A stretch of DNA of 64,000 nt from Candidatus Micrarchaeota archaeon (GTDB taxonomy: Archaea > Micrarchaeota > Micrarchaeia > Anstonellales > J096): positions 33,043 to 97,042 of the forward strand of contig WAMF01000003.1 of NCBI GenBank assembly GCA_015522475.1, in the 5' to 3' direction. The translations under genes and the position numbers were made by a program. Below the pieces are notes generated by a model. It saw only the letters and a program-made list of their open reading frames with translations. It did no database searches and had not been told where the DNA came from. Positions 46,431 through 52,974 of this stretch are shown here, in pieces (within the stretch, counting starts at the first letter, position 1; each line of letters opens with the position of its first letter).

Positions 46431-46504
46431 ATGGGGCTGCCCGGATTTGAACCGGGGTCACAGGCTCCCAAAGCCCGCATGCTAACCAGGCTACACCACA
46501 GCCC
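46431..46504 (-). tRNA. tRNA-Pro (anticodon UGG)
   Basis: Cloverleaf folded by hand: acceptor GGGGCTG/CAGCCCC, anticodon stem CGGGC/GCCTG, loop TTTGGGA, T arm CCCGG-TTCAAAT-CCGGG. 74 nt, with no encoded CCA. Confidence 0.9.
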
Positions 46505-46602
46505 CGCCCTCCAATATATATCCCAAAAATCTCGTGTAAAAGAACGCCTGCTTATAATTGGCGAAGGAAAACCTTTTTAAGCCATAGCTTCAAAATAGCA
46601 CC

Positions 46603-47433
46603 ATGGACACAAAGACTGCATTCTATATTTCGGCTGGTGTAGGCCTCTTGGGGGCTGTTTTAGCGTTTACAATTCAAGGCGGTGGACTAATGGCTATTTT
46701 GGGTGGCATAATAAGCGCCCTAGGAGCAGCAGGAGCTATGGCTATATACAAGTATGGCTACATGCTTATTCCCATGCTAACAAGCACTTCGAAAACGGTC
46801 GTCGTGACAACAGATGGCTATGAGATCCCCCCAACACAAGATGCAGTTGTCAAAAAAACAAAGGAAGGAGTATACTACGCTTCTGTATTCTTGACAATGA
46901 AGCTTTACCAATCAGCTGTAGAGATGACAGAGGAGCAGTTAAGAGCTTACAACAAAGCATTCGAGACAGCTATGGCAGGGTTCAAGGGCGTCGTCAAGAT
47001 AGCGTATATGCTACATGCTGTCGACGTCTCGGACAAGAAAAGAGAGCTTGAAACAAAGAAGGCAGAGGCGCAGCTTCGCCTTCAGAGAGAGCGAGAAAAA
47101 ACAGAGCCAGATCCTCTTCGTATAGAAAGATACGAAAGGGAAGTGATGTACTGGAATGCCCAAATAGATAAGCTCTCAAGAGGGCTTCGTCCAATGAGAG
47201 TTGTTCTCTATGCTATGACAACAGCTGCCGGTTTAACAAGAGAAGAGGCTCTAGCTAAGGCAAGAAACCAAGCTGCTGAATTGAGAACGCTGCTTTCCAA
47301 CGCATTGAACTGTGAAGTGTATGTCTTAGCTGCAGACGACCTTATGCGCGTTTTAGAGTGGGAGAAGTTCATGCCCACAAGCGCCGAAGAGCTAGAAGAG
47401 AACCTAGAAACAGAAGGCTCATCCAACATGTAA
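46603..47433 (+). CDS. membrane protein: Gly/Ala-rich TM hairpin plus a soluble domain resembling a VirB4/TraC N-terminal domain
   Basis: Two TM helices (AFYISAGVGLLGAVLAF, LMAILGGIISALGAAGAMAI), then about 200 aa. It lies directly upstream (22 nt) of the VirB4-like ATPase. A TATA element at 46573-46581 is about 26 nt before the ATG. The functional call is inference. Confidence 0.45.
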   Translation: MDTKTAFYISAGVGLLGAVLAFTIQGGGLMAILGGIISALGAAGAMAIYKYGYMLIPMLTSTSKTVVVTTDGYEIPPTQDAVVKKTKEGVYYASVFLTMKLYQSAVEMTEEQLRAYNKAFETAMAGFKGVVKIAYMLHAVDVSDKKRELETKKAEAQLRLQREREKTEPDPLRIERYEREVMYWNAQIDKLSRGLRPMRVVLYAMTTAAGLTREEALAKARNQAAELRTLLSNALNCEVYVLAADDLMRVLEWEKFMPTSAEELEENLETEGSSNM

Positions 47434-47455
47434 GGACTGAGATGAGGATGAAAAA

Positions 47456-49033
47456 ATGAGTAGAATACCCAAAGCGCCTCTTAAGGTTGTCGAAACGAAC
47501 AACGTTGAAATTGGCAGAAGAAATATTCTTCACCATCCCCCTGAACCTCCACCCGAATTCCTTATGGAAGCAGCGGATAACGGCATATATGTGGGCAGGA
47601 CCGACATATTGCATACGCCCTTCTTCTGGACACCGAAATATGTGACAAACCCCCATATCGCTATAGTTGGTATATCGGGTAGTGGTAAGTCTTATTTCAT
47701 AAAAACATTCCTCATAAGAGCTAGCTTTGTGTGGAACAGCAACGCGATCATATTAGACTGGGCTGGCGAATACAAGGACTGGGTTTTGGAAACAGGTGGT
47801 AAAGTTGTCGCTTTAGGCAAGGGCAACTATCTCAACCTTCTTGACTTGGGTGGCATGCGACCATACGATAGAATCGAACAGGTTATGGCGACGCTCGGCT
47901 TGTTGACGGATGTGGGTAGATATCCAGAACAAAAAAGGCTCACAGAGGAAGCCATTGAAGAAGCATACGTACGCGCACGCTTCAAACTAGATTCAAATGA
48001 AACTAGAGATGAACTCGGCAATCCCCTACAGCCGCCAACGCTGAAAGACGTCGTGAAGATTTTGGAGGAAAAAAAGCAGCTCGGCACTTACGAATACCCA
48101 TCTGAGCTGAACAATGCCATTTATAGGCTCAAGAAACTTACACGCGAGGGTGAAGACTACTTTGCCCAACAGAGCACAATAAGCTTAGACGACATAGTAA
48201 CTAGTGGATTGGTTGATATAGACCTTACTGGCTTGCCTGACGAGCAAACGAGGGCTCTCGGCGCTTTAACGCTCATACAATTCATAAAAGAAAAGATGCG
48301 TCAAGAAGGTGCTCAGGAACAAGGAGCCATACGCCTCATAACCGTTTTGGATGAGGCATGGAAAATTGCCGGCGAAGAAAACAGCGACGTAGTCATGATT
48401 GTAAGGGAGGGTCGAAAATACAATTTCTCCCTCATTGTAGCAAGTCAGAACCCCACAGATATAAGTCAAGCTATATTCAGCAACGTCGGCACAACATTCA
48501 TTCTCAAGACAAAGTTTGAAAATTATCTAGACTATCTACAAGGCTCTTTACGTTTCAGCAATTACTTAAGAAAAAAGATTATGGGTTTTGGTGTGGGGCA
48601 AGCCGCTATAAATATGGCCTTCCATGTGCCACTTCAGTTTTCGCAGACGTTTGTGATAAAGCACATAGAAGGTGAAGAGCCTATTAAAGATTACTTCATA
48701 TCCTTTGAAGGTATTGAGGGGGTACCTATGGCATTTTCTATATCTATTAAGAAGAACGAATTTAGAGCTCGCCTTAGACGCTTCGGTCTATCAGATGAAC
48801 ACGTCGAGGCTATAACAAACGCCTTTGAAAAGGCTTACAGGCGTATGAACGTCGTAGATCTTGTCTTGCAGTTAGAACGTTACGGTGTGGACAGAAGGCA
48901 GATCGTAGACTTCTTAAAGGAGATGGGTGTCAACGACGCGACAGTCATAGATATATTCACAAAAGCAGACTTCAAACGAGAAGGCAAAAAAGGCAAGCCG
49001 ACAAGGCTTCTCCTAAAAAAGAAGGGCAAGTGA
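47456..49033 (+). CDS. VirB4/TraC/CedB-like (FtsK-HerA superfamily) ATPase
   Basis: Walker A VGISGSGKSYF, NLLDL, Walker B ITVLDEAWKI and REGRKYNFSLIVASQNPTDI, plus a C-terminal extra domain of about 100 aa ending in a Lys-rich tail. Confidence 0.75.
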   Translation: MSRIPKAPLKVVETNNVEIGRRNILHHPPEPPPEFLMEAADNGIYVGRTDILHTPFFWTPKYVTNPHIAIVGISGSGKSYFIKTFLIRASFVWNSNAIILDWAGEYKDWVLETGGKVVALGKGNYLNLLDLGGMRPYDRIEQVMATLGLLTDVGRYPEQKRLTEEAIEEAYVRARFKLDSNETRDELGNPLQPPTLKDVVKILEEKKQLGTYEYPSELNNAIYRLKKLTREGEDYFAQQSTISLDDIVTSGLVDIDLTGLPDEQTRALGALTLIQFIKEKMRQEGAQEQGAIRLITVLDEAWKIAGEENSDVVMIVREGRKYNFSLIVASQNPTDISQAIFSNVGTTFILKTKFENYLDYLQGSLRFSNYLRKKIMGFGVGQAAINMAFHVPLQFSQTFVIKHIEGEEPIKDYFISFEGIEGVPMAFSISIKKNEFRARLRRFGLSDEHVEAITNAFEKAYRRMNVVDLVLQLERYGVDRRQIVDFLKEMGVNDATVIDIFTKADFKREGKKGKPTRLLLKKKGK

Positions 49034-49042
49034 GGTGTATGT

Positions 49043-49684
49043 ATGCAAAATGGCAAAAATAGCAAAAACAAGGGAAAGCAGCCAAACCTATCTGCCCATC
49101 CTATAGCTATATCCGTCGACACAGGAGAGCCTATAAAGGAAGGCTACAGGATAAAAGATGATCCTATACTGAATGCGATAAAAGACTTAAAACGCATGCT
49201 GGGCACATACAAAGGCAACCTTTTGTACGTCTCAGAGGAAGGCAAAGCGCGTTTTGTAGAGAGAAGAAAGCGCTTCGAGAGGTATATGTTGGTCGCTGTC
49301 CTGTTTGCCGTTCTCATATACACAATAGGTGTCCTTCTTCCTCTTGTCTCAGGAGACTTTGGAAAAGCTCTGAACATGTTTATACCATCGACAGTTTTAA
49401 CAATAGTTGTATTCTTTTTTGTCCTTCTTACATACGTTCCTTCTATAGAAGATGAGATAAGTCAAGTGCCTAAAAAGTACTTAGCGGATGTGTTTTTAGC
49501 TAAGGGAGGAAAAGAAGGAAAATTAGAAGAAAGCAAAGAAATAAAAAAGCAAGAGGAAGGGAAGGCAAAAAGAGCAAAGGCAAAAGCGAAGAGCAAAAGA
49601 AACGACACAAAAAGGAGGAAGCTAAAAGAGATAGAGAAGCAGGAAAAGCAAGGGAGCCCAAGAAAAAAGAGAAAGAGGGTATGA
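49043..49684 (+). CDS. 2-TM membrane protein with long Lys/Arg-rich C-terminal tail
   Basis: TM helices YMLVAVLFAVLIYTIGVLLPLV and VLTIVVFFFVLLTYV. Tail KAKRAKAKAKSKRNDTKRRKLKEIEKQEKQGSPRKKRKRV. GAGGTG overlaps the preceding stop codon. Confidence 0.6.
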   Translation: MQNGKNSKNKGKQPNLSAHPIAISVDTGEPIKEGYRIKDDPILNAIKDLKRMLGTYKGNLLYVSEEGKARFVERRKRFERYMLVAVLFAVLIYTIGVLLPLVSGDFGKALNMFIPSTVLTIVVFFFVLLTYVPSIEDEISQVPKKYLADVFLAKGGKEGKLEESKEIKKQEEGKAKRAKAKAKSKRNDTKRRKLKEIEKQEKQGSPRKKRKRV

Positions 49685-49722: not shown

Positions 49723-50433
49723 ATGGCTGAAGATATGGAAATTGGCTCTATAGAGATAGTAACGCCTGGAGAGGCCAATATAGATGAACTTTACAACATA
49801 ATCTCAGAATACAAGAATTTCTATGCTCTGAAGGAGAAAGACAAGGCTTACCTGGCAACTGTAGAAGAAGAAGACGTTTCGGGCAATCCTCGAAAATTCA
49901 TAATCGTGGAACTCATGCCTTCGAAGATAATTGTTATATATACAATTGCTCCAGACGAAAGCCCATCTGTTAGGAAACTGGAGGTGTTCTCAAAAATCTT
50001 GCCTATGCTAGAGCCCATAATCCCAAAGTACAGACTGCCCATTTCTGCCTTGCTTTCTATACTTGACTCGGCTCTTTCCCAATTCCTCAAGAAGTTCACA
50101 CGCGACGTGAGGGATGTACTCATAGACAACGATAGATTAAGAGAAAAAGTAAAGGAGCTACAATCACACCTAGAGATGGAAAGAAAAAATGTAAGGGAGC
50201 TCACCACAAAACTCTATGAGGTAAATTCTCTCCTATCAGAGGCTAAGATGAAGCTCAAAAAGTACGAGACACCCTCAGACGAAGTGCTCAAGCAGCTTGT
50301 AGTAGAATGGCTTAAAGAACACGATGGAGAAATTGATTTAGAAACGTTCTCTAAAGTTAAAAATGTGCCCATAGCGCGCGTCGAAGAAATTTTGACTAGA
50401 CTTATAGAGGAAAAGGTAATAAAGCCTTTATGA
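49723..50433 (+). CDS. cytoplasmic coiled-coil protein with C-terminal winged-helix-like module
   Basis: Heptad-like stretch LREKVKELQSHLEMERKNVRELTTKLYEVNSLLSEAKMKLKK, then EWLKEHDGEIDLETFSKVKNVPIARVEEILTRLIEEKVI. AAGGTGA lies upstream. Confidence 0.6.
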   Translation: MAEDMEIGSIEIVTPGEANIDELYNIISEYKNFYALKEKDKAYLATVEEEDVSGNPRKFIIVELMPSKIIVIYTIAPDESPSVRKLEVFSKILPMLEPIIPKYRLPISALLSILDSALSQFLKKFTRDVRDVLIDNDRLREKVKELQSHLEMERKNVRELTTKLYEVNSLLSEAKMKLKKYETPSDEVLKQLVVEWLKEHDGEIDLETFSKVKNVPIARVEEILTRLIEEKVIKPL

Positions 50434-50472: not shown

Positions 50473-52974
50473 GTGAAAAAGCGTTTCATAATACTATCTG
50501 AGCCCAAATATGCAAAGAAGTACAAGGTAATCAAAAAGCCCCTTCTGAAGCGCATAATGGAAAAGCTCAAACCCAAGAAAAAAAAGCAAAAGAAGGAAGT
50601 AAAAAAGGTTGAAGAAAAGGTGGAAATAAAAGGTATCGATGTTTTATTGGGTAAAGCGCTCCCCATCCTCATCTTAATATTTCTCATCGGTGTGGGCTAT
50701 TACGAATATATACACTTATCAGCTCTCCTTCATGCAATCCCGCCAGCATCGCTAATTCCAGCCCAGCCAAAAGCTGTAAACATAAGTATAACGCAGACGT
50801 ATCTGGCTGACTTCGGCACGAGAATAAGTAAACAACTCGCAGCTGTAGCATTTGTAAGTCTCAAAGACAATGCCTCTCTTACAGTAGGTGAACCTATAAA
50901 ACCTGTAAGTGGGATAGTCTATGTTCTAGCAGACCGTTCCTATCCTCAAACAGAGGCGCTTACAAACGAAGTAGAAAGCACATTGATAAGAGAAGGCTTC
51001 AGTGTAACAGAATTGAGATCTGTCAATGAATTGAAGTTTGTAAAAAAAAGCAGTTTGGTGATAGTTATATACGACGTTCTTCCTTCTGGTCTAAAAGAGT
51101 GGTTCACACCTCTTTTAAACAACGACGTTGACATTTTATACGTTGGAGCTAATCCCCTTTCAGAATCTACAGGCACACTTTTTAAGAGCATAACAAATTT
51201 TTGGGAGTTGAAGGGTGTGAGAATTGTGCCCGCTAGCCTCTCATCTAAAGAACTCAACATAAGCAACATTCGTTATACAGTAGGCCATACCAGCCTAACT
51301 CTATACAATACTATACCCGCCTTCTCATTTAAGGACGAAAGTGGAAGGGGACGCTTTGTTCTCTTTACAGGAGCTGTAGGCGGATCAAACTTCTACAACT
51401 CTTGGAAATCTCCAAGCGATGCAGCTAGTGACATCGAAAAGGTTGTTAATGCACTCTACAATGCAACCTTCTCTAATCAACATATATCAAAATACAGATT
51501 AAGCAAGGGTGACCATGCTGTGTTTTTCACGCTGCCTTTAACAGAAGAGAGTTCATACATGCTCATAAAGGCTACGGCTAAAGGAAAACTCCCTTCATAC
51601 AGAGTCGCAATCGTGGAAAAAGATTTCCCAGGCTCCGCATACTTTGAAGAGGCCTCGCCCATATTACCATACTCCATTTCTAAGAAGAAATCTGTTATAG
51701 AGTTTGTAGCTAACCCCTCTGATATGTATTCGTTCGTTAGGGTGAAGCTCCTTGTAACCAATGCCTCTGGCAACGTAATTGATGAGAAAGATGTAAACAA
51801 AGGTAACATACTTGCAGCCAACCAACTTATAGACGTAGACTATTACAACCCTGGTATAGATGAAGGCGGCTACATATTCGAATTCGATGACACAGACCTT
51901 CACAAAGTGTATGCAAAGACTTTTCTAGAAGTGGGCACTCTTAACATAAGGCTCGTGCCAGATTTCAAAGGCGCAACCATACATGTCTATTTTAGCGTAG
52001 CGGGCAGACCGAAGGTTATTGGAAAAGCCACGCTCACGTATTTGAAGAAAGGCAAGCCAGAAGCCTCTATGACGTTTACAAACGTCGACCACATAGATTG
52101 GGAGCTCAAAAGCTATTTCAACGGTCCTATACCTGTGGGCAAGTACAACTTCACAGTTACAGTACCAGGCTATGGCACAAAAACGTTTGAAGTGGTTAGA
52201 GAATCATCTGTAGGTATATCTCAATTAATGACTCCCCAAAACATAGCCATAATCATATTCTCTGTAATTATGTACGCTGTTGGCTACATAATGAAGAGGC
52301 ATGAAGAGCTGCCCTACTCTATAGATGTGCCTGACTTTGCCCCTGTAGAATACGAAACAATTGAGATAACGGCTGAGCAGCTTCTCAAAGCGTTTGACTT
52401 GGTGAACGACTTCTACAAGTGGAAAAACACACCTCTAACGGTAAACGAGATAAAGAAGGGCATTCGCCTGGTTCTGGACAAAGAAGACCTTGTCCTCAAC
52501 GACTTCAATGTGCAGATTGTGTTGGAAGCGCTCATAAAAGAAGGGAAAATCCTTCTCATCGACAAGTATTATTTGAAAAAGGATTGGCTGAATGAAGGTT
52601 TTACGGCTGAGCAGCTCATCATATTTAGACGTTTAAGAGATGCATGTATTGATTTGGCTATTCCTTTCAAGCCTCTATCAAAGAGACTTCCACATACAAA
52701 GTTAACGCTGCCTTGGCAAGAATTCTGGGTTTATATATACGCTCCTCTTCAGAGAGATGCCATAACGCGGGATATAATAAAGAGGGCTGTGAGCGAAGAG
52801 AATATAATGCCTGTCATACTCTTCTACGACACGAAATCGTTAGATGAATTCGACATTGTGCTCAGCGATGGCCGTGTGAAAAGCAGCCTAATAAAAGCCT
52901 ATGTAGACAACGATATGGTTTACATATTCACAATCGAAGAGTTCATAAAGAAGCTCAAGCAGCTGAAGAGTTAG
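50473..52974 (+). CDS. large bitopic membrane protein (basic N-tail, about 500-aa ectodomain, second TM, about 230-aa cytoplasmic domain)
   Basis: GTG start after GAGGGGA. Lys-rich N-terminus, TM ALPILILIFLIGVGYY, a beta-rich ectodomain with several N-x-S/T sites, and TM IAIIIFSVIMYAVGYIM. No family recognised. Confidence 0.6.
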   Translation: MKKRFIILSEPKYAKKYKVIKKPLLKRIMEKLKPKKKKQKKEVKKVEEKVEIKGIDVLLGKALPILILIFLIGVGYYEYIHLSALLHAIPPASLIPAQPKAVNISITQTYLADFGTRISKQLAAVAFVSLKDNASLTVGEPIKPVSGIVYVLADRSYPQTEALTNEVESTLIREGFSVTELRSVNELKFVKKSSLVIVIYDVLPSGLKEWFTPLLNNDVDILYVGANPLSESTGTLFKSITNFWELKGVRIVPASLSSKELNISNIRYTVGHTSLTLYNTIPAFSFKDESGRGRFVLFTGAVGGSNFYNSWKSPSDAASDIEKVVNALYNATFSNQHISKYRLSKGDHAVFFTLPLTEESSYMLIKATAKGKLPSYRVAIVEKDFPGSAYFEEASPILPYSISKKKSVIEFVANPSDMYSFVRVKLLVTNASGNVIDEKDVNKGNILAANQLIDVDYYNPGIDEGGYIFEFDDTDLHKVYAKTFLEVGTLNIRLVPDFKGATIHVYFSVAGRPKVIGKATLTYLKKGKPEASMTFTNVDHIDWELKSYFNGPIPVGKYNFTVTVPGYGTKTFEVVRESSVGISQLMTPQNIAIIIFSVIMYAVGYIMKRHEELPYSIDVPDFAPVEYETIEITAEQLLKAFDLVNDFYKWKNTPLTVNEIKKGIRLVLDKEDLVLNDFNVQIVLEALIKEGKILLIDKYYLKKDWLNEGFTAEQLIIFRRLRDACIDLAIPFKPLSKRLPHTKLTLPWQEFWVYIYAPLQRDAITRDIIKRAVSEENIMPVILFYDTKSLDEFDIVLSDGRVKSSLIKAYVDNDMVYIFTIEEFIKKLKQLKS

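Follow-up and report, generated by a model that had tools for sequence, protein, structure and literature searches.

A VirB4-type motor probably encoded as two separate proteins across the Micrarchaeota

VirB4 is the ATPase of type IV secretion systems (T4SSs), of conjugation machines and of Ced-like systems, and to our knowledge no component other than a VirB4-type motor is found in every conjugation, type IV secretion and Ced/Ted machine. In T4SSs the N-terminal domains of VirB4 are embedded in or attached to the membrane, link the protomers of a dimer and contact VirB3 and VirB8, while the C-terminal domains make up the ring of the ATPase (PMC9259494; PMC12857230). In TrwK, the VirB4 of R388, residues 15–400 make up the N-terminal domain and residues 400–823 the C-terminal ATPase domain (PMC9259494); the monoderm-type VirB4 of Thermoanaerobacter pseudethanolicus (PDB 4AG5/4AG6) likewise carries N-terminal domain and motor on one chain. 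Archaea have the DNA-import systems Ced and Ted, which are domesticated T4SS derivatives (PMC9905601), and VirB4-type ATPases of Nanohaloarchaeota have been proposed to act in host interaction (PMC10266531). Here we describe a locus in a 64,000-nucleotide (nt) stretch of archaeal DNA (Candidatus Micrarchaeota archaeon, contig WAMF01000003.1; hereafter the window), where an N-terminal-type domain and a motor are encoded by two adjacent open reading frames (ORFs). ORF A (46603–47433, + strand) encodes 276 amino acids (aa), consisting of a membrane hairpin and a domain of VirB4 N-terminal type, and ORF B (47456–49033, + strand) encodes a 525-aa ATPase that resembles the C-terminal domain of VirB4 and has no N-terminal domain of its own. 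Together, the two probably constitute a two-piece VirB4-type motor, ORF A being its membrane subunit.

The two proteins together fit a single VirB4 structure. The structures of TrwK/VirB4 with TrwM/VirB3 from R388 (PDB 7O41-7O43, 8RTB, 8RTD; PMC9259494) were used for comparison, and residues 69–258 of ORF A followed by residues 30–432 of ORF B tile TrwK 219–817 in order and without overlap. The soluble domain of ORF A superposes on TrwK 219–376 and ORF B on TrwK 399–817. Because the N-terminal domain of TrwK spans residues 15–400, ORF A matches the part of it that lies directly before the motor. Some 20 TrwK residues are left between the two matches, and these would correspond to the acidic tail of ORF A plus the first 29 residues of ORF B. 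The likeness extends to the membrane, where a two-helix element lies beside the N-terminal domain as VirB3 does in R388. However, the motor is here made of two polypeptides rather than one, and the first ~200 residues of the TrwK N-terminal domain are without a counterpart. Unlike VirB3, the hairpin is part of the same polypeptide as the N-terminal-type domain; it gives no VirB3 sequence signal, and ORF B has an extra C-terminal helical domain that TrwK lacks. The A and B genes are also chromosomal and found phylum-wide, whereas R388 is plasmid-borne. What computation shows here are the two folds, their collinear fit to one VirB4 structure, the lack of fused forms, and, across the phylum, the agreement of A and B in distribution together with the adjacency of their genes.

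The first-pass annotation of the window, made from the sequence without database searches, had described the upstream gene as a Gly/Ala-rich two-helix membrane hairpin followed by about 200 soluble residues whose motifs resemble the VirB4 N-terminal domain, and structure prediction bears out both statements. An AlphaFold2 (AF2) model of ORF A, for which an alignment of 36 homologues was the input, is confident (predicted local distance difference test, pLDDT, 86). It contains helices at residues 3–23 and 29–63, which form the Gly/Ala-rich transmembrane hairpin (residues 3–63; 46609–46791, + strand), and then a cytoplasmic alpha/beta domain at residues ~70–258 (46810–47376, + strand) with a long helical hairpin at 142–192. 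A Foldseek search of this model against the PDB placed TrwK/VirB4 chains of the R388 T4SS at ranks 1–9 (E 3e-3 to 2e-2, probability 0.99–1.0). In a search of 48,161 chains that is independent of Foldseek, TrwK was, among the matches listed, the sole one covering the whole soluble domain. YbjN and the C-terminal domain of aIF2-alpha were also returned by Foldseek (E 0.08–0.4), more weakly than TrwK and over a smaller share of the domain. An automatic Atlas cluster name suggested an SPFH/Band-7 protein; this identity is unsupported, with no SPFH structure among the listed Foldseek/VIA matches and no Band_7 Pfam match in the 36 members. Sequence searches of the PDB with ORF A and its family profile returned nothing meaningful, Pfam and NCBIfam nothing above noise, and PADLOC and PHROGs no match. 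The 97 close homologues are 215–314 aa long, the full-length ones ~262–314 aa, and those that are named are labelled Micrarchaeota, Anstonellales, Bilamarchaeaceae or Burarchaeum, with a few further archaeal labels, all of them Micrarchaeota or DPANN relatives. We conclude that the soluble domain of ORF A belongs to the VirB4 N-terminal-domain kind, a homology that rests on the fold and on weak profile–profile signals (P ~1e-3 to 2e-4) described below.

The hairpin has the layout of VirB3 and PrgI: two helices, at the N-terminus of ORF A, encoded directly before the motor gene. The description of it as VirB3-like therefore stands for topology and position, but does not extend to homology. PF12666 (PrgI) matched 1 of the 36 family members, at E 0.056, and an hhalign comparison of the hairpin with PrgI hairpins gave P 0.28, a score reached by 6 of 100 shuffles. 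At the level of sequence, the hairpin has no detectable homology to VirB3 or PrgI.

ORF B has the features of a VirB4, TraC or TrbE motor, namely a RecA-like P-loop C-terminal domain of VirB4 fold with intact Walker A and Walker B motifs. Walker A (GISGSGKS, 47669–47692, + strand) occupies residues 72–79, with K78 as the lysine, and Walker B (VLDEAW, 48344–48361, + strand) residues 297–302. Among 26 sequences, down to 42% identity, G72, G75, G77, K78 and S79 of the former and V297, D299, E300, A301 and W302 of the latter are invariant. Pfam DUF87, AAA_10 and P-loop_TraG score above cut-off on ORF B, and the C-terminal domain of VirB4 is its best structural match. The same-chain N-terminal domain of VirB4, TraC and TrbE (PF03135 / TraC_F_IV) is absent, PF03135 from Pfam giving no match on ORF B; the N-terminal-domain fold is found in trans, on ORF A. 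It had been noted at first pass that this gene starts about 70 residues before Walker A, and the frame agrees: it is open for 530 codons, only 5 of them ahead of the ATG, so that no N-terminal extension is hidden there. What precedes the core is a conserved peptide, RRNILxHPPEPPxEF (residues 20–36; 47513–47563, + strand), a candidate docking segment for ORF A. In the same 26 sequences E30 and P31 never vary and R22, P28 and P29 hardly do, and residues 1–27 are predicted to be disordered in the AF2 monomer (pLDDT <50). At the other end, the VirB4 match ends at residue 412, and a helical add-on with a Lys-rich tail follows outside the VirB4 core (residues ~428–510; 48737–49030, + strand; AF2 helices 433–509). 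In other Micrarchaeota families a separate gene of ~100 aa directly after the ATPase encodes this same C-terminal helical domain (L022 5368–5688; L024 5038–5334; L025 6284–6583; L026 6373–6669; L027 6310–6639). The window has no such gene, and the N-terminus of ORF C, the next gene downstream, is not a copy of the domain.

Two ORFs lying 22 nt apart in different frames could also arise if a frameshift, an assembly error or recent pseudogenisation had interrupted one VirB4-like gene in this genome. The distribution of the pair speaks against this. ORF A was found in 177 of 201 Micrarchaeota genomes and so was ORF B; family by family the two tallies agree (25 of 25), and both searches list the same 20 genomes as having no match. 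Two unpublished genomes, G029 and G198, are included in this count (175/199 without them), and the other claims made here are independent of both. In all 79 genomes with listed coordinates for the two genes, A directly precedes B; it does so in G016 and G038 as well. Spacers range from 0 to ~60 nt, and A and B are separate genes in every relative examined. Fusion of the two ORFs in related genomes had been proposed as a check, and none was found: an hmmsearch with the ORF A profile, run without a length filter against 1.84 billion representative proteins, returned no fused A–B form. All full-length proteins among its 201 matches are 240–285 aa, and two longer ones (466 and 366 aa) match the profile only partially. 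Homologues of ORF B number 120 among the matches listed and are 500–545 aa long. The two genes are moreover unlinked in two complete genomes, and ORF B has a ribosome-binding-site-like motif of its own, a Shine-Dalgarno-like GAGG (47444–47447, + strand) read from the sequence inside the 22-nt spacer, 8 nt before the ATG. An assembly artefact or recent pseudogene is excluded. With the same separate genes in nearly the whole phylum, no fused form and the unlinked copies, the two-piece motor is old and stable.

Gene order gives further detail on the pair. Other families of the class have the order A'-A-B-b-C-D-E, in which A' denotes a paralogue in tandem with A, and b a small gene encoding a copy of the C-terminal helical domain of B. 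A genome of the same genus as the window, G163, carries a tandem A'-A ahead of B; the window has a single A, and its genome (88% complete) contains one A and one B. Within the window's order there is a second, diverged operon, A2-B2-D2 (L028 4429–7506, L029 3316–6235 and L030 4355–7269, in genomes G089, G106 and G062), which is without C and E and 35–43% identical to A and B. Across that order, match counts for A and for B go together. The existence of this second operon indicates that the split pair was duplicated as a unit together with D.

A number of results weigh against a two-piece VirB4 motor. No match at E ≤ 1 to ORF A or its family was listed for the sequence models of PF03135 / TraC_F_IV or of VirB3/PrgI, and the Pfam model PF03135, which had been suggested as a check on the 276-aa protein, did not recognise it. 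A first hhalign run, which set two narrow alignments (A1 vs A3) against each other, found no similarity. ORF B lies below the curated NCBIfam cut-offs for VirB4, CedB and HerA: its matches there are weak (CedB, mycoplasma VirB4, CedD, CD1110-type VirB4 and HerA) and far under those thresholds, and against TIGR00929, TIGR02746, NF045971 and NF045975 it reaches 38–69 bits where 325–643 are asked for. By sequence score, DndH and HerA are about as close to ORF B as VirB4 is. Among the neighbours of A and B, homologues of VirB2, VirB6, VirD4 and relaxases were not recognised by Pfam or NCBIfam. Finally, two complete genomes have A'-A and B-b-(C)-D-E far apart, at distances of ~23 kb (G033) and ~135 kb (G042), although both sets are retained (G033, A'-A at L021 3312–5002 and the B operon at L022 3861–9450; G042, A'-A at L023 3187–4899 and the B operon at L024 3524–8975).

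The similarity in score to HerA and DndH raises the question of whether ORF B is instead an ATPase of HerA or DndH/DptH type, acting in DNA repair or anti-phage defence, beside an unrelated membrane protein encoded by ORF A. In PADLOC and PHROGs, ORF B matched only generic HerA, DndH and terminase-like P-loop families and families of unknown function. However, the HerA matches cover only residues ~240–395, the second half of the core, whereas the VirB4 matches cover all of it, and the best structural match is to VirB4. ORF B has ~70 residues before Walker A and lacks both a HAS-barrel and the long N-terminal region of DndH; it is not a multidomain protein of >1300 aa with a C-terminal P-loop in a dnd/dpt context, as DndH/DptH proteins are. 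Scans of the neighbours with Pfam, NCBIfam and other libraries turned up no Sir2, NurA or Dnd partner and no nuclease, whereas HerA goes with NurA or another nuclease. The A–B pair is near-universal, co-occurring and co-duplicated, unlike patchy defence islands, and the fold of ORF A matches VirB4. We regard an identity as HerA or DndH as very improbable.

The homology of ORF A to VirB4 N-terminal regions was also examined at the level of sequence. PF03135 searches of the 201 Micrarchaeota genomes gave two matches over cut-off, both in canonical systems. The first, L031 (16–3180, − strand), encodes a 1054-aa PrgI–VirB4 fusion, with PrgI at residues 13–68, PF03135 at 418–560 and Walker A at 624. 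In the second, L032 (1–2855, − strand), the gene for a 285-aa protein composed of a PrgI hairpin and a domain runs 4 nt into the next gene, whose product has at least 667 aa and contains PF03135 and the motor; a gene for a polytopic membrane protein lies upstream. Both are canonical T4SS ATPases, probably on mobile elements, and canonical PrgI–VirB4 genes in general appear to be found on plasmids and mobile elements, with only these 2 of 201 genomes in the phylum over the cut-off. Canonical VirB4 alignments were built from L031, L032, their homologues and four plasmid VirB4 loci, and the enriched alignment of the ORF A family holds 179 sequences. A signal in hhalign emerged only when both sides were enriched. 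When compared with the 260 residues that precede Walker A in canonical VirB4s, the ORF A family scored 30.4 (P 1.2e-3) over 181 columns, A 63–264, collinear with the structural alignment. The controls scored lower: column shuffles had a mean of 12.7 and a maximum of 18.1, shuffles of 12-column blocks a mean of 16.4 and a maximum of 30.3, and the reversed alignment 13.9, so that the real score was not reached by any shuffle. The best profile similarity of the family is to the domain that follows PrgI hairpins, a set made up of L031 86–340, the 285-aa protein of L032, a 349-aa PrgI-family protein of Embleya, a 337-aa protein of Miltoncostaea and TrsD. Here the score was 35.7 (P 2.1e-4) over 170 columns, A 57–257, and the shuffle maxima were 14.7 and 24.9.

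These scores bear on a different history, one of reduction rather than fission, in which ORF A is the counterpart of accessory proteins of the 'long PrgI' or TrsD type and ORF B is a VirB4 that lost its PF03135 subdomain. The higher score against the post-PrgI domain agrees with it, as does the existence of separate proteins of the same layout as ORF A, namely the 285-aa protein of L032, the 349-aa 'PrgI family protein' on an Embleya plasmid and TrsD, which precedes VirB4 on a Lactiplantibacillus plasmid. A features search in the Atlas also led to a Bacillota cluster of 196-aa proteins with PF26593 (TraC-like), at a score of 0.80 that we treat as a lead only. However, the margin of the post-PrgI domain over the PF03135 region is not clear, and the two N-terminal subdomains may themselves be related (P 0.025). 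The structural comparison is with TrwK, the only solved structure covering the domain, and it places A at TrwK 219–376, right before the motor and contiguous with B from 399. ORF B, for its part, starts where the PF03135 region ends in canonical VirB4s. Structure thus favours the PF03135 subdomain just before the motor as the counterpart of ORF A, and profiles slightly favour the first, TraC-like subdomain after PrgI hairpins. We consider reduction unlikely.

Beside the PrgI systems, the arrangement in the window is less out of the ordinary than the first-pass annotation had supposed. PrgI–VirB4 fusions and long PrgI/TrsD–VirB4 pairs have the same order of parts as here, hairpin, N-terminal-type domain and motor, and in some monoderm and archaeal systems (L032, the Embleya plasmid, Lactiplantibacillus TrsD) the hairpin-plus-domain protein is already a separate gene. 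A separate protein with hairpin and N-terminal-type domain is therefore not in itself unusual, being present in Gram-positive and archaeal systems. What does set the locus apart is its ATPase: in the long PrgI/TrsD systems the ATPase keeps its own PF03135, whereas ORF B has no N-terminal domain.

Among archaeal systems, the closest parallels are CedB/CedD and TedB, which are chromosomal, domesticated VirB4-like ATPases and work with small membrane proteins of two transmembrane helices (PMC9905601, PMC11868833). CedB is the best NCBIfam match of ORF B (4.9e-22) and CedD the third (4.5e-18). Both alignments are partial and do not reach equivalog level, with 78 bits against CedB (NF041017, cut-off 700) and 65 bits against CedD (NF053655, cut-off 600). 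The CedB model, of 590 positions, has ~200 more positions before the aligned core than ORF B has residues, which suggests that the chain of CedB includes an N-terminal region. Furthermore, unlike in Ced, no CedA/VirB6-like polytopic protein was recognised in the operon formed by ORFs A to E. In the Nanohaloarchaeota, another DPANN lineage with chromosomal T4SS-type ATPases, VirB4/TraG-like ATPases are encoded next to giant SPEARE-type surface proteins (PMC10266531). The VirB4 homologue there, however, includes PF03135 in its own chain, and one ATPase domain forms part of a giant adhesin, a fusion not present here.

The five genes A to E all run in the same direction (+ strand). ORF C (49043–49684, + strand) is a protein of two transmembrane helices with a basic tail, ORF D (49723–50433, + strand) a coiled-coil protein and ORF E (50473–52974, + strand) a protein of 833 aa that was predicted at first pass to be membrane-embedded. 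Pfam, NCBIfam, PADLOC and PHROGs recognised no family in ORFs C, D and E, and gave none of them an assignment as VirB6/TrbL, VirB2 pilin, VirD4 or relaxase. A long Lys/Arg-rich tail is found at the end of ORF C and at the start of ORF E, and ORF B likewise has a Lys/Arg-rich C-terminal end: KKGKPTRLLLKKKGK. The operon begins just past a tRNA-Pro gene (anticodon TGG; 46432–46505, − strand), which separates ORF A from a family-B DNA polymerase gene (minus strand); an AglB-like oligosaccharyltransferase is also encoded upstream, and CTP synthase downstream of the locus. A T-rich box, TTTTTAA, lies ~25–30 nt ahead of the ATG of ORF A. On the same contig, outside the window, there is a second, distant ATPase of the HerA/VirB4 superfamily (G000:C3:2342-3244; open frame of 626 codons), which is 26% identical to ORF B over residues 65–364.

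In the two-piece motor that we favour, ORF A would be anchored in the cytoplasmic membrane by its two-helix hairpin, with the alpha/beta domain facing the cytoplasm, and ORF B would contribute the RecA-like C-terminal motor domain, the additional C-terminal helical domain and the basic tail. Most likely, ORF A does the job of the VirB4 N-terminal domain in trans, as a membrane docking platform to which B is bound non-covalently. The conserved and otherwise disordered N-terminal peptide of ORF B is a candidate for the contact. ATP hydrolysis by a ring of B would then power the assembly of, or transport through, a membrane machine that includes ORFs C, D and E. Its substrate may be DNA, as in Ced/Ted, or a pilin or another protein, and DNA import and pilus assembly are the obvious candidates. 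The physical complex of A and B, the stoichiometry of the ring and the substrate are inferred. Our literature searches, which did not cover all journals, turned up no account of this family, of VirB4 split in two, or of any VirB4 motor that lacks its whole N-terminal domain; we read the locus as a machine of T4SS/Ced type whose motor is divided between two proteins.

Micrarchaeota are ultra-small, host-dependent DPANN archaea, and we know of no account of the route by which DNA, nucleotides or other large molecules enter them. The A–B pair, chromosomal in nearly every sampled genome, is a concrete candidate for a transport machine of these organisms. It is possible, although we hold it rather doubtful, that the split motor, together with its three partners, makes up a conjugation-derived machine, inherited vertically and present phylum-wide, that is the main conduit between Micrarchaeota and their hosts, importing DNA or nucleotides or building a contact pilus. 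Having the motor in two or three parts docked at the membrane (A', A and B) would in that case be a functional adaptation that might, for instance, allow the docking of the ATPase ring to be regulated. Such a conduit would parallel the T4SS reported to be required for the epibiotic growth of Patescibacteria (PMC12857230). For the VirB4 family as a whole, an N-terminal domain supplied in trans is a natural experiment in which membrane docking has been parted from ATP hydrolysis, and it could help to define what that domain does.

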